The notes beneath the pieces are model-generated. The model was given only the letters and a program-made list of their open reading frames with translations. It ran no database searches and had not been told where the DNA came from. A DNA stretch of 64,000 nt, from assembly GCA_963815145.1 (NCBI GenBank), contig CAWFFS010000027.1, positions 126,769-190,768 of the forward strand. Direction: 5' to 3'. A program made the position numbers and the translations under genes. This document shows positions 5,447 to 23,318 of this stretch, piece by piece; the first letter of the stretch is position 1, and each line of letters starts with the position of its first letter. The stretch is from an uncultured delta proteobacterium. GTDB lineage: Bacteria > Desulfobacterota > DSM-4660 > Desulfatiglandales > HGW-15.

Positions 5447-5883
5447 TGCCTCTTACCATTAAAGGGCGGATTGCTTTCAAAATACGTACTCGTTAAATCA
5501 TACAGCAGTACTTCAAAATGCGGGTCAAACAGATCTTCCCATTTCTTCCTGAGATGTTTGAAAAGTTCTTCCTTATGCTCAAGCACCTTGTCGTGGCAGC
5601 GATACAATGTGTCTTTTTCCGCTATACTGAAGTCCTCTCCAAGAATATCCCCCATTGCACTGTTCTCATACCAGTATCGATACAGCCGCCACTCACTTCC
5701 CGGATCGATCAGCCGGTATGTCACCAGAGTCTGCAATACATTACGCCACCTCGTACCTTTCCTGCTGTCTCCCAGTCTTTCCTCCCAGAATTCCTTTAAC
5801 CCCAGCATCTCCCACAGTTCATTCACAAGAAAGCACGCTCCCCACTGTCTCGGACGTCTGAGTTCCAGGCCATAGGTCTTCAC
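5447..5883 (-). mobile_element. IS1634-family transposase, internal fragment
   Basis: RQWGACFL..ELW..LGL..FW, YRLIDPGSEWRL, LLYDLTSTYFE; truncated on both sides, 3' break at the 5397-5446 hairpin. Confidence 0.8.
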
Positions 5884-6012: not shown

Positions 6013-6186
6013 TGAAGCTACGCCCCGACAGGTCCGTCTTCACATAAATATATGCCGGGATAAAATGGCGGGACAGGCGAAAAGTACGAAAATATAAACA
6101 TAATAATTTTCTATATTTTAAAACTTCAGTTTGTTTCATGCATTTTCGAGGTCATATGGAATGAAATAGATGAATCTATCGACTTT
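6013..6186. repeat. ~175-bp dispersed repeat, copy 1 (copy 2 at 21005-21178), containing a gaagctacgccccgaca REP-like unit
   Basis: Direct sequence comparison; moderately diverged. Confidence 0.8.
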
Positions 6187-6595
6187 GAAAAATGACGTGA
6201 CGATATGGTATAGACTGGCCTGGTAAAAAGGAGTGCATGAAGCTGATCCAGCAGCCTTTAGTTGCCACTCTTAAGCCATGCAGGGAGGAATCGATTAGCA
6301 GTGGTTTTTTAGAAGAAACCTCTTTTGAGAACTTTGCTTGCTGTTGGGTCAGAGTCATTAGCCATTGTCTGAATTTTATCTATCATTCTTTGAAAAACAT
6401 CTGAATGATACTTTGCCGCCTCGAGAAAATTTATATATTCTTCTCTATGTGTTTTGCGATCAGCGGTAGTTCTATATTCCTGCCGGATATTTGATGACAT
6501 TCTTTTGGCTTTTCTGACTATAAGGACATCATCAATATGCGTGGAAGTTATTGAGACCGGTGTCATAACAAGAAATTCACAAACTAAAAAAAAAA

Positions 6596-6972: not shown

Positions 6973-7856
6973 AGTCCTTCGGGGTCGGACCAAGCTAACC
7001 TATTGGAACCAAAAAATATATGTTGAAAATCGCCTCGAACTTAAGGCTTAAATAGCTCTTTTTAGGCATGAAAATGGAGATATAATAAAACATAAACGAA
7101 TAGGGCTTGCCCTGTTAAATGCTGTTTTACAGCCCGCTTCGCGGATTTAACTGTGTAAACCTTGATATCGGGCAAAAAGAGCGAGTTAGGGTATCAAATT
7201 TTTTTTAACTCTTATATGTTCCCGGAATCTTATACATCTTCCTTGATCCACCACTATTTATTTGATAGAAAATAACAACTTATCGAATAAAGAACACAGA
7301 GATCACGTCCCGGTTAAATAAATACTAAATGTGTTTAACTGGATAAATCTTGATATTCGACGGATTCTTAACTTCTGTACCTCTTCGTTTTAGGCAGCAT
7401 CTGTCCTATGTCCGGACCTGATCCCTTTTGACTATGAAACATGATTTAAAGAGATGGAGATTATATAAATTGAAGAAGAAAAGCAGTGAAAGGAGAGAAA
7501 AGGTTTTTTTATTGCATGAAAAAGGTATGACTTTCCGCGAGATCGGTATTCACTTTGGATTTAACCCCGCGAGGGCCAGGCAGATTTATATAAAGGCCAA
7601 GGAGGAAAAGGAGTTGCTTAATCGCAGTCCTTTTTCCTCACACCTTTCAGCACGTTCCCGGAATGCGTTACAACTGTATTTCAATGATGAAAATATAATC
7701 GATGATCCTGACACTGTTGCTAAACTCGGAAGGAAAAAGCTTAGCACTATCAGGAATTTGGGTATTAAGTCTGTTGAAGAAATTTCAAAGATCCTGTATA
7801 AATTGGGTTGTATTAAAGATCCTGATTCTTGGTAGTATATATTTTCCGCCATTTAT
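6973..7856 (+). repeat. 884-bp direct repeat, copy 1 (copy 2 at 22435-23318)
   Basis: Constant offset of 15462 bp; about 8 substitutions counted by eye. Confidence 0.95.
7428..7835 (+). CDS. Small protein: sigma70 region-4-like HTH fused to an RNA polymerase alpha-CTD-like domain
   Basis: HTH GMTFREIGIHFGFNPARARQI; C-terminal LSARSRNAL...LSTIRNLGIKSVEEI..IL..LG matches the alpha-CTD pattern LSxRxxNxL...NLGxKSxxEI. Confidence 0.75.
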   Translation: MTMKHDLKRWRLYKLKKKSSERREKVFLLHEKGMTFREIGIHFGFNPARARQIYIKAKEEKELLNRSPFSSHLSARSRNALQLYFNDENIIDDPDTVAKLGRKKLSTIRNLGIKSVEEISKILYKLGCIKDPDSW

Positions 7857-7860
7857 ACTC

Positions 7861-7925
7861 AATGGGGACGTCCATGAATTAATTCCAAGAACATTTATAA
7901 TCATTTTTTCATGGACGTCCCCATT
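7861..7925. repeat. Perfect 18-bp inverted repeat (REPIN-like / collapsed RAYT ends)
   Basis: aatggggacgtccatgaa ... ttcatggacgtccccatt; GGGGAC core shared with the RAYT terminal repeats. Confidence 0.75.
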
Positions 7926-7933
7926 GATTATCA

Positions 7934-8152
7934 TTGATTATCATTGAGGATAAACCCTGTCAGGAAAACAATAAAAAGATACCCAAATATGAAAGAGTGG
8001 ACATCCGCATCGGTTATAATGAGATCGAGCTAAGGAGCAGAATAAAAGCATGCGGGGGGAAATGGGAGCCAGAACGAAAAGTTTGGCAACTATCATATAA
8101 AAAGGTAAAAGAACTTGATTTATTAAATAGGATTGTTGATGATGAGTCTTGA
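7934..8152 (+). pseudogene. C-terminal half of a hypothetical protein (tandem paralog of 8192-8536)
   Basis: IIEDKP...IRIGYNEIELRSRIKACGGKWEPERKVW; the 5' part is lost at the 7861-7925 hairpin. Confidence 0.55.
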
Positions 8153-8191: not shown

Positions 8192-8536
8192 ATGAAAGTA
8201 AGACGAATCCTGCAGCCAGGGCAGCCTGGAACTAAAAAGCTCGTTAAAAGATATGGCGATAATATGCTCTGTGTACGATACAGGTATGATGAGGATAAAA
8301 TGATGAAGTACAAGACAATAGAACTCATCATCGATGAGAAACCCATGCCGAGAAAAACCAAAAAAAAGCCAAAACCTAAAAAGATGAACATACACATTGG
8401 CTCAAAGAGATCGAGATAATGATCCTGATAAAAAAAAAGTGGAATATGTTATCCTCAAAGAAGAGTCTGGCGGCTCCCTTATGCAAAGGTGAAAGCACTT
8501 GATTTATTAGGGAGGATTGTTGATAATGAGCCCTGA
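8192..8536 (+). pseudogene. Hypothetical protein, frameshifted/degenerate in the C-terminal half
   Basis: PGQPGTKKLVKRYGDNMLCVRYRYD; the 3' end parallels the end of 7934-8152. Confidence 0.55.
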
Positions 8537-8585
8537 AAAATGGGTATATATAGCTAATTTTCAAACAGGCAAAAAATGCAAAAAT

Positions 8586-8714
8586 GGTTACACGTAACCA
8601 TAATAAAATAGTTACATATAACCAATTTTTTTAAATCTGGTTACATATAACCATAAATGTTTATATGTAACCAGATTTTAAACCGGCCCTAAACCGCTTA
8701 ATAACATGTTGGCT
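8586..8714 (+). other. Candidate integron attI region: repeated GGTTACAYRTAACC boxes followed by a GTTGGCT core at 8708-8714
   Basis: Four ggttaca(t/c)(a/g)taacc-like boxes (8586, ~8610, 8639 and an inverted one at ~8659); GTTGGCT is complementary to R'' AGCCAAC of the first attC; no attC hairpin precedes it. Confidence 0.5.
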
Positions 8715-8734
8715 GTCAATAGAATCAGGGAAAA

Positions 8735-9100
8735 ATGGCAAAGAAAAAGAATTTATCACCAAAATATCAAGTATGGATTGATGCAAGAAAACGGTTTCAT
8801 CTTTCTCATACACATATTCAAATGGCACGGGAAATAGGATTGAATCCAAAGAAATTGGGGAAACTGGCAAACCATAAACAGGAACCTTGGAAATTGCCAC
8901 TTCCGGAATATATTGAAGAATTGTATTTCAAACATTTTAAAAAGGAACCGCCGAAAGACTCATTATCCATAGAGCAACTTGTAAAATTAAAAAAACAAAA
9001 AAATGCGGAAAGAAAAGAACGCAAAAGACAGGAAAAAGATAAAGAAACAATTGAGCAAGTTTCGGCCTCTAATCCTGAATATGATGATATACCTTTTTAA
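8735..9100 (+). CDS. Hypothetical protein (cassette 1)
   Basis: ORF between the putative attI and the attC at 9169. Confidence 0.75.
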   Translation: MAKKKNLSPKYQVWIDARKRFHLSHTHIQMAREIGLNPKKLGKLANHKQEPWKLPLPEYIEELYFKHFKKEPPKDSLSIEQLVKLKKQKNAERKERKRQEKDKETIEQVSASNPEYDDIPF

Positions 9101-9168
9101 GGAAGTTTTTTATTTAAAAACGTGTATTGAAAGTAAGCAGGCAAAAACAAACTAAACAGGTTGGCGGC

Positions 9169-9298
9169 AGCCAACAAGTCACTAAACAAGGACAGGCTGG
9201 TTTTTCTTGCCGAATCGAACCGCAAAGGTTCGCGAAGTTATATAATGCAACAAGCTTCAAAGGTATGCCCCGCCTGCCTGTTAGTGTCGTCGTTGGAT
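9169..9298 (+). other. attC site
   Basis: R'' AGCCAAC ... R' GTTGGAT with cactaa/ttagtg L boxes; 130 bp. Confidence 0.85.
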
Positions 9299-9860
9299 GA
9301 AAGGAATCATAATGCTCGATGCATTTATCAAACTCACTGAAAAAATAATTGAATTGGGCAAGGAGAAGAGTAATAGACGTATTATGTTATTTGAAAAACA
9401 CGCTGAGCCTATGTTTGGTTTATGTAGAGTGGTTCATGATGATTATATTGATGCATTTAAAGAAATTGAAACCTATTTAGTCTCTTCAACATCGGGTATT
9501 AACGAATCATTGGATTTTTTAAAGAAGAGACGAGAAGATTGCTTGAGTGTAAGGCGTGAAATATTTGAATATTGCTATCAGTTAGAACAGCAGCCACCAA
9601 AATGCCTCCTCCCTTTCGTTATAGCATGCCGTGCCCTTTTGAATGCGTCACCGGACTTAGTCGAAGGTGTACGTTGGCATCCTTCAGATTATACATGTTT
9701 AGCCCATAACCTTGAGTTGTTATCAAGAAAAGATGCGCATTTTAGCACTGATGTAAATTATCGCCTCGAGTTACTCAATAGATTCAGATTAGATGTGACC
9801 CAATCTTGGGAAAAAGTAAAAAGTGAATATTTCAAACTTAAAGTGGATTGTTACAAATGA
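9297..9860 (+). CDS. Hypothetical protein (cassette)
   Basis: ORF flanked by attC sites. Confidence 0.75.
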   Translation: MKGIIMLDAFIKLTEKIIELGKEKSNRRIMLFEKHAEPMFGLCRVVHDDYIDAFKEIETYLVSSTSGINESLDFLKKRREDCLSVRREIFEYCYQLEQQPPKCLLPFVIACRALLNASPDLVEGVRWHPSDYTCLAHNLELLSRKDAHFSTDVNYRLELLNRFRLDVTQSWEKVKSEYFKLKVDCYK

Positions 9861-9873
9861 CAATAAAATAAAC

Positions 9874-9959
9874 ATCCAACAAAATGCTACACCAGACCCC
9901 GGAGGGTTCCTTGCTTCATATGAAACCTCACGGCGGGGCTGGTGAGCAATACGTTGTGT
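9874..9959 (+). other. attC site
   Basis: R'' ATCCAAC (complements the preceding GTTGGAT) ... R' GTTGTGT. Confidence 0.9.
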
Positions 9960-9966
9960 GTAGAAT

Positions 9967-10530
9967 ATGATGGAATCCAAAAAAGCTCTTCTAAAATTCA
10001 ATGATGAAGGAATTATTATAGGGCGCCTTTTGGTGGCATATGCTGATTTGGAACTTAGTCTTTTTCACTGTGTAAATGTGACACGAGATGATTTTGATAC
10101 AGTTTATAAGGCAATGTTCAAGGAAAGAGGTGAATCACGACGCATAACTATGGCTGACACCTTTGGAAGACAAAATTATCATACATTAGGGTTTGGCACT
10201 CAGTTTGAAATGGCCATAAGTTCAGTTCGTTTTTGTTTAAAAATAAGAAATCAATATGCACATTGCATTTGGTATGATGATTTTAGTGGAAAATTGGCTT
10301 TTGCAAATTTAGAGGAAGGTACTGAAAGCAATAAAGTTGTAACTGATTTTAAAGAATTGACTATTCGGCATATAGATATTGATACGTTGCATTTGCAGGA
10401 GAAATATTTTGAATATACCGATTCCTTTCTTGCATGGGTGAATTTTGAGGGGCGGCGGGTAGCAGGAAAGCCATCGATGCCTAAACAACAAGCTCCAAAG
10501 CATATCAATCAACCGCCGCTATATGCATGA
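9967..10530 (+). CDS. Putative HEPN-domain protein (cassette)
   Basis: Rx4H motif RNQYAH in a small, apparently helical protein. Confidence 0.6.
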   Translation: MMESKKALLKFNDEGIIIGRLLVAYADLELSLFHCVNVTRDDFDTVYKAMFKERGESRRITMADTFGRQNYHTLGFGTQFEMAISSVRFCLKIRNQYAHCIWYDDFSGKLAFANLEEGTESNKVVTDFKELTIRHIDIDTLHLQEKYFEYTDSFLAWVNFEGRRVAGKPSMPKQQAPKHINQPPLYA

Positions 10531-10534
10531 GAGC

Positions 10535-10591
10535 ACACAACCTGTGCCTTCAGGCGACTCGGTTCCCTCGCGCCTGAGGCTGGCGTTGGCA
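10535..10591 (+). other. attC site
   Basis: R'' ACACAAC ... gccttcaggcg/cgcctgaggc stem ... R' GTTGGCA; 57 bp. Confidence 0.9.
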
Positions 10592-10601
10592 TGGTATAAA
10601 A

Positions 10602-11501
10602 ATGACAGATCTATTTACAGTTTTCATCGTTAAAGGAGTATTAGAGCCGTGGCTATCCTCTTCGGACATGGTGTATAGTTCGATTTTGTCTACACTGAAA
10701 AGTCTTCAACTCTCAGTCCCGTATTGTGTCGAGCTTTATGAATCATTCGATAATTTACCCTTGGGAAACAATCTAAATTGTGATGAAATTCGTGTTGTTA
10801 TTTGTCATATAGACAAGAACGCTGAACAAGAAGTGCTGTCCCGAAGGGATGAGTTCCTTTGGGTACTTGTCTCTGGCGGACAACATGCTGTATCAAAGTC
10901 TTTCCGCAATAAAATGCAACATTGTCATGCCATCTGGTTCCAAGGAGCATACAAGCGGGAAGATAATTTTGCACATTGGATAAGACATTGGACAAAACAA
11001 AATTTTGACATTTCCAATTTTAGTACGAGTGAAGATGCGTTATTCTTTGGTGCATCTGGTCCGATGCTGCATCTGAAAAAATTGCAACAAGACCTGCAAC
11101 CACTTATGATAATTATAGAAAGCTTTAATTCTCTTTGCCATATGGCTGATATGAAAATTGATGCTCCCATGATTAATGAATTATCTATGGGGATTTGTGA
11201 AGTAATCAAAACTCCTGCTATGCTTGACATTATAAGCTCAGAAGCCACACTGCTTGATGGTTGGTTAGCTTCCCAAGAGACCTTAGAACCTGAGCGAGTA
11301 AAGTTGATTAGAAATGCATTATATCCATTGATACCACATGATTATGGACATTTTGAAGTCTATAATCCTAAATTAGACATGGATTTAATCGCCCTCGCCG
11401 AGAACAGGCTAACACATGAAAAGATTTTTGAAGTTGTCGATAAATGGCAAGAACGCTTGGCAGTCCTCTCACAACCAAACAAAGACTTATTCCAGCAGTA
11501 A
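10602..11501 (+). CDS. Hypothetical protein, first gene of a two-gene cassette (possible receiver-like N-terminal domain)
   Basis: 299-aa ORF; VVICH...LWVLVSGG alpha/beta pattern. Confidence 0.7.
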   Translation: MTDLFTVFIVKGVLEPWLSSSDMVYSSILSTLKSLQLSVPYCVELYESFDNLPLGNNLNCDEIRVVICHIDKNAEQEVLSRRDEFLWVLVSGGQHAVSKSFRNKMQHCHAIWFQGAYKREDNFAHWIRHWTKQNFDISNFSTSEDALFFGASGPMLHLKKLQQDLQPLMIIIESFNSLCHMADMKIDAPMINELSMGICEVIKTPAMLDIISSEATLLDGWLASQETLEPERVKLIRNALYPLIPHDYGHFEVYNPKLDMDLIALAENRLTHEKIFEVVDKWQERLAVLSQPNKDLFQQ

Positions 11502-11520
11502 TAAAATGGAGATTGAATAG

Positions 11521-12570
11521 ATGGCTATTTATGAAAACCCTTTTACAACAGACACATCTAGAATCCCAATTAATAGGATTTTAGATCGTTCTGATGAGCT
11601 GAAAAGGATCGAAACAATAACCGTAGCACGTAGTGAAAATATATTACTAACCGGTGAGAATGGCATTGGCAAGACCTGTTTACTTAAAAAGTTCAGGTCG
11701 GCACTTTCAACTCAATATCCAGATGATTGCCTTCTAGTAGAAATTGAAATGCTTGGGATGGCGACGACTCCAGATCGATTTATTTCCGGCTTGTTGCTGA
11801 AGCTTTTTGAGGTTGTTTATACCTCTGTGACCAACAAACCATTTTCATCACTACTTGCATATTCATCTACCGCTCGGGACTTTCCAGTATCGTTAGTGCC
11901 AGCCGTAAAGCACATAATTCAGCTGTTCAGAATGGTCAAGGCTAGAGAGACTTCATCCAATGTCGAAGATAAACATAAAATTGGCGCATCACTTGGCCTT
12001 TCTGCTAACAAAGAGGAAAAACTCGGGAAAAGCTATAAATCTGGGGAATTAAGCCCTACGGAACTTCTTTCAATTTCCTACGAACTTCTTGTGCTACTAA
12101 ATGATAAAGGCTTCTCTAGGGTAATAGTTTTCGGTGACGAGGCAAATCATATTTCTCCAGATATAGAGATTGACTTATATCGTAGTAATTTTGAAGCGTT
12201 CTCTTCACGCAACCTCCAGTTTGTTTTTACGGGTGCTCCAAGATTGTTTGAAAAAATACCGCATTTCCATGAGTTATTTCCTAATGCACTGAAAGTAACG
12301 GGTTTTAAAGACACTGCCGCACTTGATGAGCTTATTGACATTAATTGCAAGGAACTTGCTGAATATGGGATTTCTCTCAACTTTCCTTCTGAAATAAGAA
12401 CGATAATTTGGAATATAACATCTGGAAATCCACAGGAAATTCAAAGGATCTGTCGCACTGTCACTGATATTGCAGTGGAAGAATCTCTGTCAGTTGTTAC
12501 AACCGAGCTTATAATTAAGGGATGTTTGGATGTCTATTCTTTTATCCCAAAGAAACTATCGACATTATGA
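11521..12570 (+). CDS. AAA+/STAND-like P-loop ATPase, second gene of the cassette
   Basis: N-terminal ENPF..ILDR..EL, Walker A GENGIGKT, Walker B VIVFGDEAN, TSGNPQEI. Confidence 0.85.
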   Translation: MAIYENPFTTDTSRIPINRILDRSDELKRIETITVARSENILLTGENGIGKTCLLKKFRSALSTQYPDDCLLVEIEMLGMATTPDRFISGLLLKLFEVVYTSVTNKPFSSLLAYSSTARDFPVSLVPAVKHIIQLFRMVKARETSSNVEDKHKIGASLGLSANKEEKLGKSYKSGELSPTELLSISYELLVLLNDKGFSRVIVFGDEANHISPDIEIDLYRSNFEAFSSRNLQFVFTGAPRLFEKIPHFHELFPNALKVTGFKDTAALDELIDINCKELAEYGISLNFPSEIRTIIWNITSGNPQEIQRICRTVTDIAVEESLSVVTTELIIKGCLDVYSFIPKKLSTL

Positions 12571-12573
12571 TTA

Positions 12574-12644
12574 TGCCAACAACCTACTGCACCTGATCGA
12601 TGTTCCGCTGCGCTCCACACCGACAGGTGAGTAGTGCGTTGGGC
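12574..12644 (+). other. attC site
   Basis: R'' TGCCAAC ... ctactgcacctg/caggtgagtag ... R' GTTGGGC. Confidence 0.92.
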
Positions 12645-12707
12645 TACAAAAGAATACAGCGATACAGGGTCGTAATATGCATACCATTTTAATAAAAGGG
12701 GTTAATT

Positions 12708-13901
12708 ATGTCGCACATCATTTCTTTCAAAATTGAAGGTTTGGCTGGACGGAAAGATCCGTTGGAATTGGAATTGAATCGGGACACGAATATCTTCTTT
12801 GGCCCGAATGGAAGCGGCAAAACCTCCCTCCTCAAAATCTTGCATGCGGCCATGGCTAATAATACAGACATATTGGCACGCGTCCCGTTTGTTTCAGCAG
12901 AGGTACACATCTACTCGCTGACTTGGGATAAAGTATTCGTGCGTTCGCTTAAAAAGGCACAAAATATAAAAATTAGCCACTCCAAGGCAAGGAGGGTTGT
13001 TCACAGCGAAGTGCGAATAGGTAAAGATATCGTCCTTGTCGAAGAGCCATATACCGATAAGACGCTTAAATGGTCATGTAGTCCAAAGACTCCTAAAGAG
13101 GCATCCACAACTAGTTGGGCACACGAATATCTATCTACATCGCGACTCCATGTCAGTGACGAACCAATGCCTCCCTTTTTTGAGCCATCGGGTTCCTCAC
13201 GCACTTGGCTAACCGAAGACCAGTTGGATACTTTCTTCGCCCGTTCAGTTGAGAGACTCTGGAATAGATACTCTGCCAAAATCCTTAGCGCTGTACGTGA
13301 AGCTCAAGAGCAAGGCCTTGCAAGTATTTTACGTGCAGTCCTAGCTTCCGAACGCACAAAGGGGAAGCGCAGAAATAGCAAACTCACCAGCGCTACGGCC
13401 TATGAGAGGGTTCATAATTTTTTAAAAAGACAAGGCTCAGCTTCTATTCTTGGATCACGCAAAGACTTTGAAAAGCGGTATGTCGCAGATAACACCTTGC
13501 AGGATGTAGTTCAGGACATTGATGTCGTGGAGAACAAGATTAGGAGTGCCATGAAGTCGCGTGACTCTTTGCAGGAGTTAATTTCCAAAATGTTCATGGC
13601 AAATAAGGAAATCCAATTTTCAGACGAATCCATCGAGGTTAAAACACCATCAGGTGAGAAAATTGGTCTCGCATCGCTTTCATCAGGTGAAAAACATCTG
13701 ATCCGCATACTTGTTCAAGCACTCCTAGTTGGCGAAAGTTCACTTATGATCGATGAGCCAGAGATATCGATGCATGTCGACTGGCAGAAGATCCTTATTG
13801 GATCCATGCGAACACTGAACACCGATGCTCAGTTGATCCTCGCGACTCATTCTCCCGAGATCATGGCTGATGTTGAAGATGACAAGATCTTTCGAATCTA
13901 A
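12708..13901 (+). CDS. ABC/AAA_21-type ATPase (PARIS AriA-like)
   Basis: Walker A GPNGSGKT, signature LSSGE, Walker B LMIDEPE, H-loop ATHS. Confidence 0.88.
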   Translation: MSHIISFKIEGLAGRKDPLELELNRDTNIFFGPNGSGKTSLLKILHAAMANNTDILARVPFVSAEVHIYSLTWDKVFVRSLKKAQNIKISHSKARRVVHSEVRIGKDIVLVEEPYTDKTLKWSCSPKTPKEASTTSWAHEYLSTSRLHVSDEPMPPFFEPSGSSRTWLTEDQLDTFFARSVERLWNRYSAKILSAVREAQEQGLASILRAVLASERTKGKRRNSKLTSATAYERVHNFLKRQGSASILGSRKDFEKRYVADNTLQDVVQDIDVVENKIRSAMKSRDSLQELISKMFMANKEIQFSDESIEVKTPSGEKIGLASLSSGEKHLIRILVQALLVGESSLMIDEPEISMHVDWQKILIGSMRTLNTDAQLILATHSPEIMADVEDDKIFRI

Positions 13902-13913
13902 AAGAAAGGACTT

Positions 13914-14837
13914 ATGATGAACAGACTCCATCACTCATTCTCAGGCCATCTTCGACTAATGCAAATGTCGACAACCCAATTATTCATCTTCGTTGAAGGC
14001 AAACAGTGTGACCCATATTTTTTCGCAAGCATTTGCTCTGCAACATTGGACGATCGTTTGAAATACGAAATTGCCATAGCACGACAACTCCCAGGAGATA
14101 CTGGCGGTAAACAGGCATTAATCTCGTTTTTCGAATTTCTCCGAATGCGAAAATCACTGTTTTCTGACTTAGGTGGCCAAAAAACTACTTGCTTGTTCTT
14201 TCTTGATAAAGATATTGACGATCTTCAACGAAGAAAACTTCGCTCTCGTCATGTTGTCTACACTCAGCACTACGATGTGCAGAACTATATCTTTAAACAC
14301 GGAAATCTTGTAACGGGGACCTCGGCAGCGGCATCGATCGATCCAAGGAGGATCGATCGACAACTGACCGATGCTTCAGAGTGGTGCCGAAAAGCTGCTT
14401 CACTCTGGCGAGATTGGATTGCGCTCTGTCTCAGAATGCTGGAGGATGGAATTCCATGTGAAGCGAACTACAGAGTTTTATCTCCCATACAAACACGTTA
14501 CTGTGGCCCAACAGATATAAATTTACATTTAGAAATCACCCGAAGGTTGGCTCGGCGAAATAGAATTCCCGTTTCTGATCTGAGACGTAGAATTGAATTA
14601 TCAAGAAGGAAAGTAAGCAGGTATTTCGCGAAGGAGGAACATCACCGTATATTCAAAGGCAAGTGGTTTGCAATAATCCTTGCGGACGATGTCGACCGAA
14701 TTATGGCTGGAGACCCATATGACAACAATGGTCTCCCTGGGCGGTTGCCATCTGCGATCGCTGCCACTCTAGACTTTACAGAAGCATGGACGGAATACTT
14801 CAAGCAACCTTTACGAGAAATCAGTATGGAACTTTGA
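13914..14837 (+). CDS. DUF4435/TOPRIM-like nuclease (PARIS AriB-like)
   Basis: FVEG..D, GGK, DKDID, Y.(D/E)NY-like YDVQNY and KGKW motifs; directly downstream of the ABC ATPase. Confidence 0.78.
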   Translation: MMNRLHHSFSGHLRLMQMSTTQLFIFVEGKQCDPYFFASICSATLDDRLKYEIAIARQLPGDTGGKQALISFFEFLRMRKSLFSDLGGQKTTCLFFLDKDIDDLQRRKLRSRHVVYTQHYDVQNYIFKHGNLVTGTSAAASIDPRRIDRQLTDASEWCRKAASLWRDWIALCLRMLEDGIPCEANYRVLSPIQTRYCGPTDINLHLEITRRLARRNRIPVSDLRRRIELSRRKVSRYFAKEEHHRIFKGKWFAIILADDVDRIMAGDPYDNNGLPGRLPSAIAATLDFTEAWTEYFKQPLREISMEL

Positions 14838-15061
14838 AGTTAGTATATGGAAAGAGGGACGACCATAAAAATCTAAATAACTTAAAAAATCAGGTTTAAC
14901 CGGTTGTTGAATATGTGTAATCTCAACTTTCATAATAAAATTAAGGTGATGTGAGGATTCTTGGGTAATCTATTTATTTTGAACAAAACCATCTTTATGT
15001 ATAACATACAAAAAGTAATAATATCCAGAACAGGAGAATAACTTGTTGACCGGAGGGAACA

Positions 15062-15571
15062 ATGAAAGGAAGGATAAAAGCAGGCGAAGGAACTTTGGTC
15101 GGTAACGCTGGGGAATTCTATGTTGTGGCAGAGCTTTTAAAACGAGGTGTAATCGCCGCTCTCGCCCCCCGAAATTCGCCAGCGTTCGACATCCTTGCCA
15201 CAAAGGATGAGAAAACGTTTCGTATTCGTGTTAAGACAAAGTCTGAGCAATATGACAATTGGCAATGGGTTGCTAAAAAGGATGGCTCTCTTTTTCGAGA
15301 GCTCTCAGACCATGATGACTTTACTATTCTTGTTAACCTGACAATGGAGACGAAGGATCTCGCCTTTTTTATCGTTCCGACTTCAACTCTCAACAAGTGG
15401 CTGAATGATGATTTTGAAAATTGGAAGGCGACACCTGGGAAAAATGGGCGTCCGCATGATCCGACTAACAAAAAGCGTAATCTCCCATACTCGAAATACG
15501 CCGATAGGCTTAAAAATGAATGGGATATAATGTGGCAGGCACGCCAACCCGGCGTTCAAGCAGAGCGCTAA
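15062..15571 (+). CDS. PD-(D/E)XK nuclease-fold protein
   Basis: GNAGEFYVVAELLKRG...FDILA...IRVKT pattern; the stop lies inside an attC. Confidence 0.7.
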   Translation: MKGRIKAGEGTLVGNAGEFYVVAELLKRGVIAALAPRNSPAFDILATKDEKTFRIRVKTKSEQYDNWQWVAKKDGSLFRELSDHDDFTILVNLTMETKDLAFFIVPTSTLNKWLNDDFENWKATPGKNGRPHDPTNKKRNLPYSKYADRLKNEWDIMWQARQPGVQAER

Positions 15572-15601
15572 CAGCTGCGCCTGCTTAACTTACAGTTCGG
15601 G
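15542..15601 (+). other. attC site
   Basis: R'' CGCCAAC ... gttcaagcag/ctgcttaac ... R' GTTCGGG. Confidence 0.82.
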
Positions 15602-15609
15602 CGAGAGAA

Positions 15610-16011
15610 ATGAGTGGAACTAGGATAATTATAGGGTTTATTTGCGTTGTCATGGGAATTTTATCACCATATTACTATGCCATATCCATGAACGACGATC
15701 TCAATAAACTTGGCTTATTTGTAATGACAGCCATTGCTGGTGGGCTTGTGTTTCTCGTCTTCGTCTTCAGCCTAAAGCTATTTAAGTCATTAGCCAAGCA
15801 GATTATATTTGGCACAATTGGATGCTATGTATCCTTCTTTATGTTAATTTTCATTATTGCTGTTTTGACAGGAGATTTCCAAGAAACGATAAAGTGGTAT
15901 ATCCCAATTATGCTGATAGTTGGAATTCCCTACACGACTCCACTTGTGGGAGTGGTATGTTTAGGAACATTTTTAATATTTGGAAAAAGAAGTCAACCCG
16001 AACAAAATTAA
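15610..16011 (+). CDS. Integral membrane protein with ~4 TM segments (cassette)
   Basis: Hydrophobic segments; flanked by attC sites. Confidence 0.75.
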   Translation: MSGTRIIIGFICVVMGILSPYYYAISMNDDLNKLGLFVMTAIAGGLVFLVFVFSLKLFKSLAKQIIFGTIGCYVSFFMLIFIIAVLTGDFQETIKWYIPIMLIVGIPYTTPLVGVVCLGTFLIFGKRSQPEQN

Positions 16012-16124
16012 CTCAGACCGGGCGACTCTCTTGCCAGATCGGGGTTGAGTGCAACATAGAATCAATTGATGTTGGTAAACATCTAAAATTCTAAACCGCC
16101 CGGCTGGTTATTTAGGTGTTCTGA
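15997..16124 (+). other. attC site
   Basis: R'' CCCGAAC (complements GTTCGGG) ... ccgggcg/cgcccgg ... R' GTTCTGA. Confidence 0.88.
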
Positions 16125-16129
16125 GTCAA

Positions 16130-16417
16130 TTGAAAATTAATTGCGGCAAAGGAGAATTAAAGGCCATGAAAAGTGCTACTGTAAAAAAAGGGAATATGCC
16201 AGCCCACAAAGGACACACAGAGTATTTCGAGGGATTGTCCTTTGCGGAACAGGCAAAGTCAATAAATGCAACAATGGCTTATGCATCAAAGGCAATAAAG
16301 GCACATCTGAGGAAAGCCAAAATAGAAAAAAGAAACATACGTTCAGTCCATGATAAATGTATTGGGCAGGTCAGTAGGTTGCTTCAGCGCATAGAAGCAA
16401 TCAAAATAAAAGAATAA
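16130..16417 (+). CDS. Small basic hypothetical protein (cassette; likely start is the ATG at 16166)
   Basis: ORF between attC sites with a ggag RBS before the internal ATG. Confidence 0.65.
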   Translation: MKINCGKGELKAMKSATVKKGNMPAHKGHTEYFEGLSFAEQAKSINATMAYASKAIKAHLRKAKIEKRNIRSVHDKCIGQVSRLLQRIEAIKIKE

Positions 16418-16456
16418 TAGTAAGGCCATAGCAGCCAAGGAAAAAATAGAAAAACC

Positions 16457-16583
16457 TCAGAACAAGTCGCTTAACTAAGACTGGCTACTATCTTGCCGAA
16501 TCGACCTTTTGTGGTTTGCAGAAGAAGTTCTTTTAATAATCTTTTGTGGTTGGCACCGCCAGCTTGTTAGCGTGCCGTTCGGC
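16457..16583 (+). other. attC site
   Basis: R'' TCAGAAC (complements GTTCTGA) ... R' GTTCGGC; shares internal cttgccgaatcga with the attC at 9169. Confidence 0.88.
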
Positions 16584-16600
16584 AATATAAGGAAAATTTA

Positions 16601-17047
16601 ATGAATCGGTCGATATGGTCGCCATCACCAATAAGAAAAGGTACTCTCTTTGGAACTCTAAATTATGAGCTTTCAAGGCTTGACCGAACATATGAGGATA
16701 TTCTTCCTGATTTTAGTGATGCAAAAACTCTATTAATTGGGTCAGATTATAGTGGCGAATCATTTAATGCTCCTTATGTGGTATTTTCTTTTCTTTTAAC
16801 TTCATTGGAATCGTGGGCGAGGTGGGAATCATACCGCCTTCAGATAAGGAAAAAGTTTTTTTCTGATTCACGGCGTATGTCCTTTAAAAAACTTTCAGAT
16901 CGACAACGTAGTCAGGCACTGCCATATTTTTTGGAAGCAGCCAATTCTTTAGATGGCTTATTGATTTCTGTAGCTTTGAACAAAAAATGTAATCCTATTT
17001 TTGATAACAAACCTCCCATTGACTTAAGCAATCCTGATTTTAAAGCG
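16601..17047 (+). pseudogene. Cassette ORF truncated at the RAYT element left end
   Basis: The ORF reads into the terminal repeat at 17048; no 3' half or attC appears on the far side. Confidence 0.7.
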
Positions 17048-18141
17048 GGACGCTCTTCATTATTACAGTTGACAGGCTGGTTGGATAGGAATAAATTGAT
17101 CCAATGTCAAGGACAGCCAGATTAGACGCCCCAGGGGTATTACATCATGTAATGATCCGTGGGATAGAAGGAATGAAAATCTTTCGTAACAATAAAGATC
17201 GTGAAGACTTTATTTGAAAGACTTTTGCAGCTATGTCCTGAGATGAGTATAAAATGCTATGCATGGGCATTTATGTCCAACCATGCCCATTTTCTAATCC
17301 GTACAGGCGAAAACCCATTATCCAGATTTATGAGACGCCTTCTTACTGGTTATGTCATAGGGTTTAATTTCAGACATAAAAGAAGAGGGCAGTTATTTCA
17401 GAACCGGTACAAATCTATAGTATGCCAGGAAGATATATATCTAATTGAACTGGTCCGGTATATTCACCTGAACCCGGTTCGGGCAGGAATTGTTAATACC
17501 CTGGATGAATTGAAGAAATACAAATATTGCGGTCATGGGGCAATAATGAGTGGATTGAAATCTGACTGGCAGGATACAGATTATGTTCTGGGGCATTTTG
17601 GAAAGAATAAAAGAAGAGCCAGAGAAAGAATATGAAACTTTTGTTAAAAAGGGACTAAACCAGGGCCGAAATAATGAGTTGACCGGCGGTGGTCTTATAA
17701 GAAGTCTTGGGGGTTGGACAGAAGCAAAGGAAAAACTAAAAGCCGGCGCTCATATTATGAGCGATGAAAGGATACTCGGAGATTCTGATTTTGTTGATTC
17801 GATGATCACCCAATCTGAAGAAAACTATGAGAGGAGACACAGGTTAAAACAGCAAGGGTATGATCTGGAAGGTATATCGGAAAGGGTTGCTGAAGTATTA
17901 GAAATTGAACTGGATGAAGTGTTTTCCAAGGGGAGGCAGGAGAAGAAAGTAAAGGCAAGAAGTCTACTATGCTATTGGTCATCAAGGGAGTTGGGCATAT
18001 CCCATACCTCACTGGCAAGAAGACTGGAAATGAGTATATCAAATATTGGCTTATCAGTTGAGCGCGGGGAGTTAATAGCCAGGGAAGGTAAATATACACT
18101 TGAAAAGCAAGATTAAGATAATGGAATAATGAAGAGCGTCC
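17048..18141 (+). mobile_element. RAYT/TnpA(Y1) HUH transposase element with perfect 17-bp terminal inverted repeats; CDS 17104-18116 has two frameshifts
   Basis: ggacgctcttcattatt / aataatgaagagcgtcc; RLDAPGVLHHVMIRG, MSNHAH, LFQNRYKS, YIHLNPVRAG; C-terminal HTH. Confidence 0.9.
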
Positions 18142-18159
18142 TTATTTACTATTTATATA

Positions 18160-18841
18160 TAAAGGACGGGTTTACGTTCCTCGGGCAAAGTTTCCGGAAG
18201 CATGGCAGAGTATTGCACATTACGCCATCAAAGGAGGGAGTCCTCGCCCTCAAGCGGAAACTGGGAACCTTAATCCGGAAACACGTCGGAGCACCGATGC
18301 CGGTCCTGATCAAGAAGCTGAATGACGCGCTTCGTGGCTGGGGCAACTACCATAAACATATAGTGGCATCGGACGCATTTGATCATGTTGACAAATATGT
18401 ATATGATCAATTATGGAACATGGTTAAACGCAGACACAGGAAGAAATCCAAAGACTGACTAAAGGAGCATTACTGGTCAGCCGCCGGAAATAAAGGTGTG
18501 TTTGCGGTTAAAGCCAAAAATGAGAAAAACGTCGAAAAGGTGTATAGAGTTTTTCAAGTTTGTTCCATTATAATCAGAAGATACATTAAGATCAAAGCTG
18601 ATGCAAATCCTTACTTGTCAGAGTTTGCTAAGTATTATTATCGCAGAAGACATGATAAGGAAAGTAAGCTGCTTGGTGCCAGGAGTTCAAGAGAATATCT
18701 GGCTCTAAAAGCAGCCTAATGTTAACACAGCCTGGCCGCCCCACAAGGGTTGCCTTTGGGATGCTTGAGCCGTATGACGGGAAACTGTCACGTACGGTTC
18801 TTAGGGGGGAATGGGGTGGTAACACCCCTGACCTACCCGAT
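18160..18841 (+). mobile_element. Group II intron 3' remnant (RT domain 7 and maturase X, with an in-frame stop at 18456; DV/DVI at 18767-18841)
   Basis: DGFTFLG, LRGWGNY, IKADANPY; DV gagccgtatgacgggaaactgtcacgtacggttc; 3' end ...cctacccgat. Confidence 0.9.
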
Positions 18842-19712
18842 CATCAATAGGATTACTCTAGTGGAAAAAGAGAAACAAACAAGTGGAGATTTATGGGCAT
18901 GGTTCCCTGGAGGAAGTCCAGAACGCATAATTTTACAAAAAGCATTTGAGGAATCTAAAAACGACATACAGGCATTAAAGAACTTAGAAAATAAAGTGCT
19001 CGAAAAAGTAAGAGAACTAGAATCTCAGAGGAAATTCGCGTTTGCTGCGGACCTCTATTTGCTTGTCCAGGAAATAAGAGCGTCCTTGGGAATGGATGCC
19101 AGCCTAATAATGTGGGCTAGGGAGTGTGCTGCAGATTCCTTTTCGAAAGCTAAAGAATGGGGCTTAGCCCCTATTTATTACCGCGGTGTTGTTTACAAAT
19201 CTCGCCGCTCTGGTGAATTTGATGATGAACTTATGCTTCAATATTTTAAGCTAAAGTCTGCTGAACGTAATTTCCTTCGGACATCCAAACGCTGGGGGAG
19301 ATGGCTAACATACTGGATTTGGGGTATTACCTCAGGATTCGGCACCTCTTATAAAAGACTTATGTTTACAGTGCTCATGGTTTTGCTTATCTGCGCCCAC
19401 TTATTTTTTCTTGGAACAACATTAACTGGAGGACACTTCATTTCTGGTAAATCTGCTATCACATATTTAGACCATATTTATTTTAGTGTCGTAGTATTTT
19501 CAAGCTTGGGTTTCGGGGACTTATGGCCTGTTCATCCAGTTGCAAAGTTATTAGTAGTGCTGGAAGTGTTACTTGGTTTGGTCATTCTAGGCTTATTCAT
19601 ATCTATTCTTTCTAGAAGAATCACACTCATAGGGACAGTTGACTTAAGCTTAAAAAATCGTTGGAAAGAGGCGCGCAAATTAATGAAGTACAGTAGTAAA
19701 ACTAAGAAATAG
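18842..19712 (+). pseudogene. Potassium-channel (Ion_trans_2-like) domain protein; 5' end lost at the intron junction (cassette)
   Basis: YFSVVVFSSLGFGDLWP pore-loop motif flanked by TM helices; the predicted start at 18750 lies inside the intron. Confidence 0.7.
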
Positions 19713-19774
19713 GATTCATAGGAACAAAGGCGGATAAATTTTTTCAATGAAAGCGAATAAAGCAGAAAATTTTT

Positions 19775-19834
19775 GCCCAACAATTTTTTACAGCGGATCG
19801 CAAAAAACCGCGTCCGCTGAAAAACACGTTGGGC
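19775..19834 (+). other. attC site
   Basis: R'' GCCCAAC ... cagcgga/tccgctg ... R' GTTGGGC. Confidence 0.92.
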
Positions 19835-19884
19835 TTCCTGCGAGCCAAGCCTCTCTGAAGTTGCCAATGCTAAGGTGAAAAGCT

Positions 19885-20544
19885 ATGAGCGAAGGTTGGA
19901 TCTACATTGTAAGTACTCTTACATACGCTGAGAAAGATTTCTATAAGATTGGTAGGACGACTCAATCTCCAGAGGTGAGGGCGAAACAACTATCACAAGC
20001 CACGGGCGTTCCAGAGAAATTCATAGTCCATTTTGCCAAGGATGTTTCTGATTGTGAGCTGGCTGAACGAATGATCCATGAAAGGCTAAATTCCTGTCGA
20101 TATAGAGCGGACAGGGAGTTCTTTGCCATTTCATTGGAGAATGCAAAGGCAGTTGTTAACGAGGTGGCGGAAGAAATTGGTGCAGCACTCGCATTCGATG
20201 AAGAAGTGAATTCTCCGAACCTCTCAAAATACTTGAGCCTCAAACATAAAGATAGAAAACCATCAAGTTCCGCCGATGTGTCCAAGTTGGCAGAAAATCT
20301 TCTTTCCAACCATTACACCAAAATCAGGGACTTGGAAAGAATTTTGGAAAGAAGCAGAAGCGCTCTACGCGAATATGAAAAGAAGGCTCGAAAGGGAATA
20401 CTTCTATCTCAAGTAATGGCAACTCGAATCTCTCTGGAGTTGTGCGATGCAGGATTCCACGACCGAATCGGGGAACGATATCCCCTTCACGGTTTAAGAG
20501 TTGTAGACATGCTTGAGCAATTCCGAAAGCTTGTAACGGAGTAA
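19885..20544 (+). CDS. GIY-YIG nuclease, T5orf172-like (cassette)
   Basis: GWIYI...YKIGRT...R...L...TGVP..F...E..IH..L...R...REFF. Confidence 0.85.
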   Translation: MSEGWIYIVSTLTYAEKDFYKIGRTTQSPEVRAKQLSQATGVPEKFIVHFAKDVSDCELAERMIHERLNSCRYRADREFFAISLENAKAVVNEVAEEIGAALAFDEEVNSPNLSKYLSLKHKDRKPSSSADVSKLAENLLSNHYTKIRDLERILERSRSALREYEKKARKGILLSQVMATRISLELCDAGFHDRIGERYPLHGLRVVDMLEQFRKLVTE

Positions 20545-20553
20545 TGAATGTCT

Positions 20554-20618
20554 GGGCCACAAGCTTTATGGAATAGCCAGTCCGTGCCAGTTCGCGCGGT
20601 CATCTTAGCTAGTTGGGG
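20554..20618 (+). other. Degenerate attC site
   Basis: R' GTTGGGG with aagct/agct arms; R'' is mutated (GGGCCAC). Confidence 0.45.
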
Positions 20619-20626
20619 TTTTAAAA

Positions 20627-20797
20627 ATGGGAATTTTTGAGAAAATAACTTCTGAATATGGCGGTTTCAAAATCATCACTGAGAAAATTGGACGTGAGAG
20701 GCTTGATCTATACAGTGACAGAGTTTATCAGCAATATTGCAACCTATTTGATAGTGCCACGTACTTAAAAAATGTAGAACGGGACGCTCTACAGTAA
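20627..20797 (+). pseudogene. Last cassette ORF, truncated by an orphan RAYT-type end at 20781
   Basis: The ORF runs into gggacgctctacagtaattcagttga. Confidence 0.5.
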
Positions 20798-21004: not shown

Positions 21005-21178
21005 TGAAGCTACGCCCCGACAAGTCCGTCTTCACATAAATTTATGCCGGGATAAAATGGCGGGACAGGCGAAAAACACGAAATAAAAATAAAATATTTT
21101 TCCATATTTCAAAACTTCAGTTTGCTTCATCTATTTTCTGGGTCATATGGACTGAAATCGGAGTATCTATCGACTTTT
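21005..21178. repeat. ~175-bp dispersed repeat, copy 2
   Basis: Homologous to 6013-6186. Confidence 0.8.
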
Positions 21179-21312
21179 ATAACTCATGTGAAATTAACAT
21201 AATATCCAGCTAAATACATTGATTGATATTGATAAACCTTTTACAATATGCTCATTAAAAGCATGTAAAAGAATTTATCATAATTAAAAAAACTAAAATA
21301 GAGAGGTTTAAA

Positions 21313-21501
21313 ATGCTATCAGCAAAAGAGGAAACTATCCGACTCTTAAAGGAACTTCCGGACAATAGTACCTTTGAAGAAATCCAATATCATTTGTACG
21401 TTCGTCAGAAGATACAACGTGGTATCGAGGATATAGAAGATGGAAAAATATATTCTCAGGAAGATATGGAAAAACGGATGGGAAAATGGCGCGTAAAGTA
21501 A
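21313..21501 (+). CDS. Putative type II antitoxin
   Basis: 62 aa, LKELPDNSTFEEIQYHLYVRQKIQRG; overlaps the downstream RelE/ParE toxin. Confidence 0.8.
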   Translation: MLSAKEETIRLLKELPDNSTFEEIQYHLYVRQKIQRGIEDIEDGKIYSQEDMEKRMGKWRVK

Positions 21502-21794
21502 TCTGGGCCTATGCCGCGGAAGAGGATCTTGTCTCCGCCGCCGAGTATATTCATAAAGATTCTCCGGCATATGCGGCTTCTTTCGTTGACAGAGCTCTGG
21601 ATGCGGGCCGATCTCTGGATAAATTCGCAGAGCGGGGGCGTATTGTGCCGGAGCTTAATGAAGATAATATAAGGGAGATATTTGTATATAGCTATCGTCT
21701 TATTTATCGAATTGGAAATGATCAAATTTCCATCCTGGCATTAATTCACGGGCGTCGAGATTTTCAGCACGCCTGGGATGAAAAAGAACGTTAA
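21486..21794 (+). CDS. RelE/ParE-family toxin
   Basis: VIW...AEEDL...YI..DSP...GRIVPE....REIFVYSYRLIY...IHGRRD. Confidence 0.88.
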   Translation: MARKVIWAYAAEEDLVSAAEYIHKDSPAYAASFVDRALDAGRSLDKFAERGRIVPELNEDNIREIFVYSYRLIYRIGNDQISILALIHGRRDFQHAWDEKER

Positions 21795-22243: not shown

Positions 22244-22434
22244 ATGGTAAATGGGGACGCTGTTCGGTTATACGGTTGATAGAGTTATGGTAAATGGGGA
22301 CGCTGTTCGGTTATACGGTTGATAGAGTTATAGTATTCAGGTATTTATGACCCATGCCAAGACAATCTAGAATAGAGACGTCCGGCGCACTGCACAATAT
22401 CATGGCCAGAGGGATAGAAGGCGGGAAAATATTC
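22244..22434 (+). mobile_element. RAYT remnant: left end tandemly duplicated (2 x 43 bp, 22244-22329) plus the first 27 codons of the transposase (22354-22434)
   Basis: atggtaaatggggacgctgttcggttatacggttgatagagtt twice; MPRQSRIETSGALHNIMARGIEGGKIF. Confidence 0.8.
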
Positions 22435-23318
22435 AGTCCTTCGAGGTCGGACCAAGCTAACCTATTGGAACCAAAAAATATATGTTGAAAATCGCCTCGA
22501 ACTTAAGGCTTAAATAGCTCTTTTTAGGCATGAAAATGGAGATATAATAAAACATAAACGAATAGGGCTTGCCCTGTTAAATGCTGTTTTACAGCCCGCT
22601 TCGCGGATTTAACTATGTAAACCTTGATATCGGGCAAAAAGAGCGAGTTAGGGTATCAAATTTTTTTTAACTCTTATATGTTCCCGGAATCTTATACATC
22701 TTCCTTGATCCACCACTATTTATTTGATAGAAAATAACAACTTATCGAATAAAGAACACAGAGATCACGTCCCGGTTAAATAAATACTAAATGTGTTTAA
22801 CTGGATAAATCTTGATATTCGACGGATTCTTAACTTCTGTACCTCTTCGTTTTAGGCAGCATCTGTCCTATGTCCGGACCTGATCCCTTTTGACTATGAA
22901 ACATGATTTAAAGAGATGGAGATTATATAAATTGAAGAAGAAAAGCAGTGAAAGGAGAGAAAAGGTTTTTTTATTGCGTGAAAAAGGTATGACTTTCCGC
23001 GAGATCGGTATTCACTTTGGATTTAACCCCGCGAGGGCCAGGCAGATTTATATAAAAGCTAAGGAGGAAAAGGAGTTGCTTAATCGCAGTCCTTTTTCCT
23101 CACACCTTTCAGCACGTTCCCGGAATGCGTTACAACTGTATTTCAATGATGAAAATATAATTGATGATCCTGACACTGTTGCTAAACTCGGAAGGAAAAA
23201 GCTTAGCACTATCAGGAATATGGGTATTAAGTCTGTTGAAGAGATTTCAAAGATCCTGTATAAATTGGGTTGTATTAAAGATCCTGATTCTTGGTAGTAT
23301 ATATTTTCCGCCATTTAT
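22435..23318 (+). repeat. 884-bp direct repeat, copy 2
   Basis: Near-identical to 6973-7856. Confidence 0.95.
22890..23297 (+). CDS. Second copy of the HTH + alpha-CTD-like protein
   Basis: Differs from 7428-7835 by 2 aa (H>R, L>M). Confidence 0.75.
   Translation: MTMKHDLKRWRLYKLKKKSSERREKVFLLREKGMTFREIGIHFGFNPARARQIYIKAKEEKELLNRSPFSSHLSARSRNALQLYFNDENIIDDPDTVAKLGRKKLSTIRNMGIKSVEEISKILYKLGCIKDPDSW

Follow-up and report, generated by a model that had tools for sequence, protein, structure and literature searches.

The stretch of DNA analysed here, 64,000 nucleotides from the genome of an uncultured delta proteobacterium (GCA_963815145.1; hereafter the window), carries an array of integron cassettes at 8708-20780. 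With about even confidence, we interpret this array as the tail of an integron that has lost its integrase gene (intI) and kept its attI site, fused to a second array with an attI-like site at its head, and preceded by remnants of a gene for a small protein that likely binds the palindromes clustered beside attI. Integron platforms are described as consisting of intI, attI and a promoter; the small accessory gene together with its palindromes is likely a new part of that platform, the function of which we infer below. If borne out, an accessory protein that integrons themselves encode, along with an operator array to which it binds, would add a new layer of control, and the orphan attI sites bear on how clusters of attC sites lacking integrases (CALINs) originate and on their openness to new cassettes. 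Many orphan attI sites could escape notice, as attI has been searched for in classes 1-3 only. The window spans C27:126769-190768 of a 29-contig, 5.9-Mb assembly (89.7% complete, 3.45% contamination), and labels C1-C29 denote contigs of this same genome (G000); a genome of the same genus, G554 (4 contigs, 96% complete), and a further genome, G553, served for comparison. Public sequencing runs share at most 10% of words with the queried DNA, and none of those listed is an RNA run; in four of them no junction skipping a cassette was seen, which carries no weight since the array of this organism is not covered.

The sequence-only reading had described an integrase-less integron array with eight clear attC sites and one degenerate one, mostly matched R'/R'' pairs and no intI nearby. 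All nine sites were recovered where that reading had placed them: eight clear sites at 9169-9298, 9874-9959, 10535-10591, 12574-12644, 15542-15601, 15997-16124, 16457-16583 and 19775-19834, and the degenerate site at 20554-20618, whose R'' carries three mismatches. The pairing holds as well: the rule by which R'' and the GTTnnnn at the start of its own cassette are reverse complements, which is a mark of insertion by IntI, is exact at six of the nine sites, and the three misses fall at known breaks, namely a rearrangement (15542), the insertion sequence (IS) and intron break (19775), and the degenerate site itself. We judged this rule a stronger test than free folding of the bottom strand against 100 shuffles, for which the ends of four sites lay 1-2 bases off their final coordinates, and in which z was at most -2.5 for 6/9 sites (in order: -2.5, -3.1, -1.1, -3.5, -2.9, -4.1, -0.1, -5.9 and +0.6). 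The junctions are G/TT crossovers of the IntI type, and the array is a real integron cassette array. A search of the window returned no IntI remnant near it, and hence no complete integron; formally the array satisfies the definition of a CALIN (at least two attC sites, no neighbouring intI), although attI is retained. The description as integrase-less is thus accurate locally, and is incomplete for the genome, in which intact intI genes reside on C8; because attI is retained and intact intI genes exist, the array is an orphaned integron platform and not a bare CALIN. In the portions of the 2016 account available to us (PMC4889954), CALINs likewise comprise attC arrays with no nearby intI and with IS neighbours, and half of them occur in genomes with intI elsewhere. 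The array in the window differs in keeping an intact attI and platform remnants, in belonging to a set of eight copies per genome, and in containing a second attI-like site. Across the genome, a strict attC scan returned 11 sites in zero clusters, and a looser scan, which was unshuffled and misses known sites, returned 128 sites, 60 of them in at least 16 clusters on 12 contigs.

Upstream of the first cassette, the position of an attC site is occupied by a 22-bp site (attI type A; 8689-8714, forward strand, crossover after the G at 8708) that is present in eight copies in the genome, and that constitutes one of three attI types found there. Every copy is followed by GTT and then by a different first cassette, which fits the cassette rule exactly at 7/8 sites; the exception, on C17, has a first cassette interrupted by a reverse transcriptase gene. 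The attI cores are nearly invariant across all eight sites. Only the platform on C8 keeps an intact intI, and there the order is intI, an open reading frame (ORF) of 116 aa, palindromes, attI and cassettes, all on one strand, with intI and the 116-aa ORF overlapping at stop and start. The other seven platforms are partial: C29 retains intI residues 309-379, C11 residues 1-59, and the window none. A genome-wide search for intI, as the sequence-only reading had advised, yielded two full genes, both on C8 and neither at the array. The second of these (L002) goes with another attI type, present at C8, C1, C16 and C18, and with cassettes of its own, for which reason we dropped the idea that L002 is an IS91-linked integrase.

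The platform in the window is 99.5% identical to that of C29 over 774 bp and 94% identical to that of C17, and the first cassettes of these three platforms (94-99.5% identical among C17, C27 and C29) are all different. Cassette 1 of the window is matched by an identical 587-bp copy on C1, which lies behind an attC site as the third cassette in an array with another attI type; this identity indicates that cassettes have moved between arrays recently. One public-contig record of cassette 1 opens at 8708 after a different upstream sequence, a weak hint from other organisms. The multiplicity of orphan type A platforms is not a binning artefact, because the 4-contig assembly G554 carries seven attI-A sites; as these coexist with no type A intI, orphan platforms evidently persist without an integrase of their own. 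G553 has one intact platform of intI, accessory gene and attI, and one orphan. It also has an intI with no accessory gene (L187), directly after which, as read by eye, lies a LexA-like ORF.

In the window, two broken copies of the accessory gene precede attI on the forward strand: copy 1 (7937-8152) is a C-terminal half with 71% identity to residues 45-113 of the intact C8 gene, and copy 2 (8192-8530) is broken after about codon 70, with 57% identity over residues 1-113 and four internal stops. The match to the C29 platform begins just past a palindromic, 68-bp element (7860-7927) resembling a miniature transposable element with inverted repeats (MITE), with GGGGACG-type ends; here the platform breaks off, and both intI and the first half (5') of copy 1 are gone. 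The 79 homologues of the accessory protein are unnamed and belong to no Pfam family, and the Atlas clusters to which the protein is assigned, at 0.93-0.94, are likewise unnamed and have 1235, 432 and 58 members. The gene occurs in 12/401 sampled genomes of the phylum, of which 143 have intI, and in 7/151 genomes of the order; a single-protein scan of genome contigs found it at two loci, and a plasmid search returned one partial match. Among metagenome loci, taken as the best 80 of 146 matches, 59 have an IntI-like match beside the gene; this match lies upstream on the same strand in 48, is divergent in six and was scored downstream in five (one probably mis-sided). At loci L068, L094, L117 and L126 the accessory gene precedes intI, and their IntI proteins, where placed, group with the type of the window. 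A quick tree of 33 IntI with the gene and 32 without, from which partial and duplicate rows were excluded, requires six changes of the accessory label, and places 26/33 accessory-linked IntI in one clade.

The palindromes stand between this gene and attI. Five imperfect 16-bp copies occupy 8541-8673 in the window (starts 8541, 8585, 8609, 8638 and 8658; spacings 44, 24, 29 and 20), and represent a diverged variant of a family motif that has the same spacing in metagenome loci. Within the 200 bp past the gene, a repeat family with at least four copies is found at 39 of the 58 distinct loci that extend this far, against 3/58 in the highest-scoring of five shuffles; spacings of about 45, 24, 29 and 20 recur. 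A matrix built from 30 training loci describes a 16-bp palindrome, TKYCTA-N4-TAGRMA, and finds at least three sites in 17/30 held-out loci, where shuffled sequence averages 0.07 sites per locus; none of the 30 intI loci without the accessory gene reaches three sites, and a matrix-free control detects an array in two of 30 such loci. Genome-wide, the matrix yields five clusters, four of which are attI-A platforms. The association extends to distant IntI lineages, in which 12/16 loci have at least four repeat copies past the gene, and three of the four misses have under 120 bp of downstream DNA. The two IntI of the main clade that lack the gene are accompanied by at most three copies.

The predicted monomer of the accessory protein consists of two small domains (predicted local distance difference test, pLDDT, 84.7; predicted template modelling score 0.44), and a homodimer model scored 0.73 where the best control scored 0.00, the mark for such scores having been attained by 20/30 solved pairs and 1/23 single chains. 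Contacts agreed by at least 47% between homodimer runs, with pLDDT of at least 76, and the predicted interface is a two-fold strand (37-54) with the invariant residues T42, E44 and R29. A homodimer is thereby supported, at the level of prediction; since a two-fold basic protein would be encoded next to two-fold sites, binding of the protein to the palindromes suggests itself. The idea of a HARP-like or arm-binding fold was discarded, as nothing emerged for it beyond sub-threshold Pfam matches. In the literature searched, which held few subscription papers and no supplements, we found no account of a conserved gene or of a palindrome array at attI.

Taken together, the accessory protein may be a dedicated factor that coats, as a dimer, the five palindromes beside attI, the last of which are spaced by 20 bp or about two helical turns. 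It might either aid IntI at attI or control the expression of cassettes. The former, a role in recombination, is slightly favoured because the palindromes are in phase with the core of attI and because a promoter scan of the platform stayed at chance level (six found, 4.6 expected). Orphan platforms could still be loaded by IntI and by intact copies of the accessory protein that other sites in the genome supply. The deletion points of the platforms lie at the ends of GGGACG-type elements. More tentatively still, and with confidence well below even, we propose for one class of integrons a fourth platform component, a small dimeric palindrome-binding protein that is encoded between intI and attI and governs the capture or expression of cassettes, and, in this genus, an attI module that has spread to many places on the chromosome to form a distributed integron, the orphan arrays of which would be supplied by one integrase.

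Two known arrangements resemble this one in part. In the available portions of the descriptions of Treponema-type inverted integrons (PMC4889954, PMC4909258), intI points in the direction of the cassettes, as it does on C8, and attI is adjacent to intI; here, a conserved gene and five palindromes lie between the two, and intI can also be divergent where the module is present. As with the attI1 site of class 1 integrons, repeated accessory sites lie upstream of the attI core; those of attI1 (DR1 and DR2) are two 7-bp repeats bound by IntI1, whereas the present platforms carry four to six 16-bp palindromes of fixed spacing and a separate gene. Factors that tune recombination between attI and attC are, in the part of PMC8946536 consulted, host factors, one of them still unknown in V. 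cholerae.

Several observations weigh against an accessory factor of this kind. Both copies of its gene in the window are broken; G554 retains only remnants of it, and the sole full intI of G554 is 90% like the L002 type, a pattern that fits relics as well as it fits working satellites or loading by a non-cognate enzyme. Twenty-one of the 80 metagenome loci have no IntI match, and while 11 of these have too little upstream DNA, 10 have at least 800 bp. The starred branches of the quick tree force just one origin of the association, and, as accessory-linked IntI are mostly of one clade for which a single origin suffices, gene and IntI may co-occur through shared descent. Fold searches gave no clear match (Foldseek zero matches; VIA-align best Z 4.0), and DUF5710 (PF18974) is matched by 44/68 members of the accessory family, all below the cut-off level (best E 0.00015). 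The intI controls without the accessory gene were drawn from one phylum with the presence of attI unchecked. The fifth matrix cluster in the genome, three sites at C11:87479-87626, is at no known attI platform, and the matrix scores neither the variant in the window nor most Geobacter-like loci.

The strongest competing explanation, to which we assign somewhat less than even confidence, is that the platforms are frozen relics: whole integrons would have been duplicated, caught their own cassettes, and then lost intI beside GGGACG-type elements, with no addition of cassettes in trans at present. The deletion endpoints differ between platforms, as the intI remnants at C29 (309-379) and C11 (1-59) illustrate, and element ends are located at platform breaks. 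G554, moreover, has no type A intI, and its palindrome arrays are down to one or two copies at some sites; within the window, the array has been damaged by IS and intron insertion, and Cury et al., in the part of their account available (PMC4889954), link CALINs to neighbouring IS. Decay of this sort would sit poorly with attI cores that are nearly unchanged at all eight sites. It also fits less readily with a newest cassette that is 100% identical to one elsewhere and a platform that is 0.5% off its sister, although this is a weak argument given that the loss of intI is undated. Whether the platforms are relics is a matter of their activity today, and an accessory factor does not conflict with this explanation.

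An unlikely alternative is that the palindromes are extra sites for IntI itself, or are bound by a regulator of the host, for example LexA; the small gene would then be a linked passenger, or its product would act on DNA in single-stranded form. Accessory IntI sites are described for attI1 in the portions of PMC8946536 and PMC3146285 at hand, the accessory-linked IntI belong mostly to one clade, and the weak likeness to DUF5710 sits in the C-terminal half of the accessory protein. The sites in attI1 are, however, 7-bp direct repeats resembling the core, unlike 16-bp palindromes; a host regulator would be expected to have site clusters elsewhere, yet 4/5 clusters in the genome are attI platforms; and the array is found behind the gene in IntI lineages that are far apart, with intI in either orientation. 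Lastly, it is rather improbable that the array serves chiefly to store anti-phage systems and that new defence genes make up the majority of its unannotated cassettes, for while integron cassettes are known reservoirs of defence genes and the array contains a PARIS-like pair, a PDC-S57 match and an invariant RNxxxH motif, four intact unknown cassettes have no match and a fifth ORF (16601) is truncated, the base rate is about 18%, other arrays hold ORFs that look membrane-bound or metabolic by eye, and the promoter signal at the platform is not above chance.

The second component of our preferred interpretation, the fusion of two arrays, derives from an attI-like site of another type (type B; 14989-15051, forward strand), in which the crossover follows the G at 15045. 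In the genome, the 60 bp that precede this position are present as nine copies, six of which are followed by GTT; at three of these six the cassette rule is exact with a hairpin, and the copy in the window has two mismatches. Type B is present in 16/209 genomes of the class and in 9/10 of the same genus, with GTT at the junction at 16/18 loci where the pattern could be placed. None of these 18 loci has IntI beside the site, and one has a 32% XerC-like match downstream. Type B is attI-like and unrelated to type A. As this site opens the second half of the array, the window seems to hold two joined arrays, the second headed by its own attI-like site, and the fusion probably removed the attC of cassette 5, the expected R'' of which is absent from the next attC. 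Other copies of type B lie at C4:99481, C21:27480, C27:589813, C27:522289 and C14:405519, and at further loci (L159-L177). The sequence-only reading had mentioned neither this site, nor attI with its palindromes and accessory remnants, nor the missing attC of cassette 5; the transposase element that cuts ORF 16601 and the intron remnant at 18156-18841, described below, are likewise additions to it.

The cassettes, all on the forward strand, form a mixed pool. The sequence-only reading held the array to be loaded with putative anti-phage cassettes, a description that was over-read: only the AriA/AriB pair matches a named system, and a T5orf172 protein matches a defence candidate. The pair makes up cassette 5 (12638-14837; own attC lost). 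Its first ORF (12708-13901), an ABC ATPase of the AriA type, has AriA as its best match in both PADLOC (3.8e-36) and the PDB (2.2e-15), and matches PF13304 (AAA_21) and PF13175. Its partner (13914-14837), called DUF4435-like in the sequence-only reading, is matched by no model itself, and a search of the PDB with its family profile did not retrieve AriB. The family supports the call nonetheless: DUF4435 (PF14491) is found in 30 of the 120 homologues listed, the AriB model matches 50/67 members though not the protein in the window, and TOPRIM-type acidic residues (E27, D32, D97, D99 and D101) are invariant, such that an adjacent DUF4435 TOPRIM protein is recognisable at family level only. A plasmid search with ORF 13914 gave no match. 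From these similarities, cassette 5 encodes one PARIS-like pair, likely a working abortive-infection system. PARIS comprises AriA plus a DUF4435 AriB in the part of PMC11464382 available, and the gene order, in which the ABC ATPase comes ahead of the DUF4435/TOPRIM protein, is the same here; the AriA-like protein differs in having 397 aa against 464, and the partner family in having Q where E122 of AriB appears to lie, according to an unaligned reading of the motif.

Window proteins were scanned against four family libraries, among them Pfam and PADLOC. Of the domains proposed from sequence alone, T5orf172, Ion_trans_2, AAA_22 and AAA_21 pass their cut-offs, and the PD-(D/E)XK domain of cassette 6 does not (PF11645, E 0.003). 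Cassette 11 (19828-20618; degenerate attC 20554-20618) encodes a T5orf172/GIY-YIG protein (19885-20544; PF10544, E 2e-16) that matches the PADLOC candidate PDC-S57 (E 1e-21). Cassette 3 (9953-10591; attC 10535-10591) encodes a 187-aa protein proposed to be HEPN-like on account of its Rx4H motif. An Rx4-6H motif is indeed conserved, with R94, N95 and H99 invariant in 73/73 aligned homologues, and the protein is mostly helical (model pLDDT 94.9); Pfam, PDB and Foldseek searches gave no family or fold match, and a plasmid search with the ORF (9967) none either. Its nearest named Atlas cluster, at 0.80, is MtlR/FumE, a lead only; MtlR belongs to HEPN. Cassette 4 (10585-12644; attC 12574-12644) pairs a 299-aa unknown ORF (10602-11501) with a P-loop ATPase (11521-12570; AAA_22, E 4e-9) for which PADLOC yields weak P-loop matches only. 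Cassette 6 (15045-15601; attC 15542-15601) contains the PD-(D/E)XK-like ORF (15062-15571), and cassette 10 (18842-19834; attC 19775-19834) encodes a helical N-terminus and a two-transmembrane ion-channel domain (ORF end 19712; Ion_trans_2, PF07885, E 1e-10) with potassium-channel matches in the PDB. We rejected Hailong for cassette 10, as HalA scored 21 bits where the cut-off is 250, and over the channel part only, with no HalB match among the neighbours.

The remaining cassettes had been put forward as good candidates for new defence functions, a claim that found no support. Cassette 1 (8708-9298; 121-aa ORF 8735-9100; attC 9169-9298), cassette 2 (9292-9959; ORF 9297-9860; attC 9874-9959), cassette 7 (15595-16124; hydrophobic 133-aa ORF 15610-16011; attC 15997-16124) and cassette 8 (16118-16583; small basic ORF 16130-16417; attC 16457-16583), the latter two with an exact cassette rule, encode proteins with no match above noise; in the four libraries, ORFs 8735, 9297, 10602, 15610 and 16130 have no useful family match, and the PADLOC scan that had been recommended, which recovered AriA and PDC-S57, returned nothing above noise for 8735, 9297, 15610 and 16130. 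A plasmid search with ORF 8735 found three hypothetical proteins. In cassette 9 (16577-17040), ORF 16601 (16601-17040) is truncated, its 3' end and attC being lost; its IGSDYSG motif is reminiscent of DUF3800/RNase H-like nucleases, and family searches gave no match. A further cassette begins at 20612-20780, and is cut off by the end of a GGGACG-type repeat. About 18% of the unknown V. cholerae cassettes tested were protective according to the portion of a preprint available to us (bioRxiv 10.1101/2024.07.02.601686), and on that base rate about one of the intact unknown cassettes might be expected to protect. Defence cargo in integrons is already known, and that of this array, one more PARIS-like cassette along with a few candidates, is unexceptional. 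Other arrays of the genome carry ORFs that appear, by eye, to be membrane and metabolic genes.

The array has been interrupted by several mobile elements. ORF 16601 runs at about 17041 into the end of a broken element with terminal inverted repeats (17041-18148, forward strand) that encodes a Y1 transposase of the type associated with repetitive extragenic palindromes (PF01797, NF047646), and that has 88% copies with identical ends on C21 and C5. Next to it lies a group II intron of which the 3' part remains (18156-18841, forward strand; RF00029 at 18765-18841, 70 bits; PF08388), oriented with the cassettes and ending where the R' of a lost attC would be. A full copy on C7, at 95%, is inserted in the R' box of an attC site. 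The 3' exon in the window begins with C, and if the intron sat in R', as is probable, this C would complete GTTGGGC, the sequence that the R'' of cassette 10 predicts. An IIC-attC intron was ruled out, given that the remnant runs in the same direction as the cassettes and not opposite in the bottom strand of attC. The closest described parallel, in the portion of PMC7923331 available, is UHB.I2, a group IIB intron just downstream of attC, which is likewise oriented with the cassettes at the R' end of the attC top strand; the copy in the window is a 3' remnant, and its relatives in the genome lie in the R' box or the left arm. These occur in attC top strands at C7:108376-110630, C5:2848 and C21:38433 (R' box) and at C16:199207 (left arm), the attC of the last being nearly identical to the first attC of the window. 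A public contig has the same left-arm intron join at window position 9191.

GGGACG-type elements are abundant in the genome, and in the window lie at most breaks of array or platform (7860-7927, 17041-18148, 20777 onward and 22244-22329). Copies of 69-79 bp of the MITE-like element, at 96-100% identity, occur on C4, C10, C11 and C27, and the repeat that begins at about 20777 has many copies in the genome. The whole array is flanked by an 884-bp direct repeat (6973-7856 and 22435-23318; 99%) that encodes a 135-aa protein with weak matches to a sigma-70 region 4 helix-turn-helix and to the RNA polymerase alpha C-terminal domain; the pair is possibly a duplication unit. A second repeat pair, at 81-95% identity, lies at 6013-6200 and 21005-21191, and a fragment of an IS1634-family transposase is located upstream of the array at 5374-5883. 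Just past the array, at 21312-21794, is a ParE/RelE-type toxin gene (PF05016), and the short ORF upstream of it probably encodes the antitoxin.

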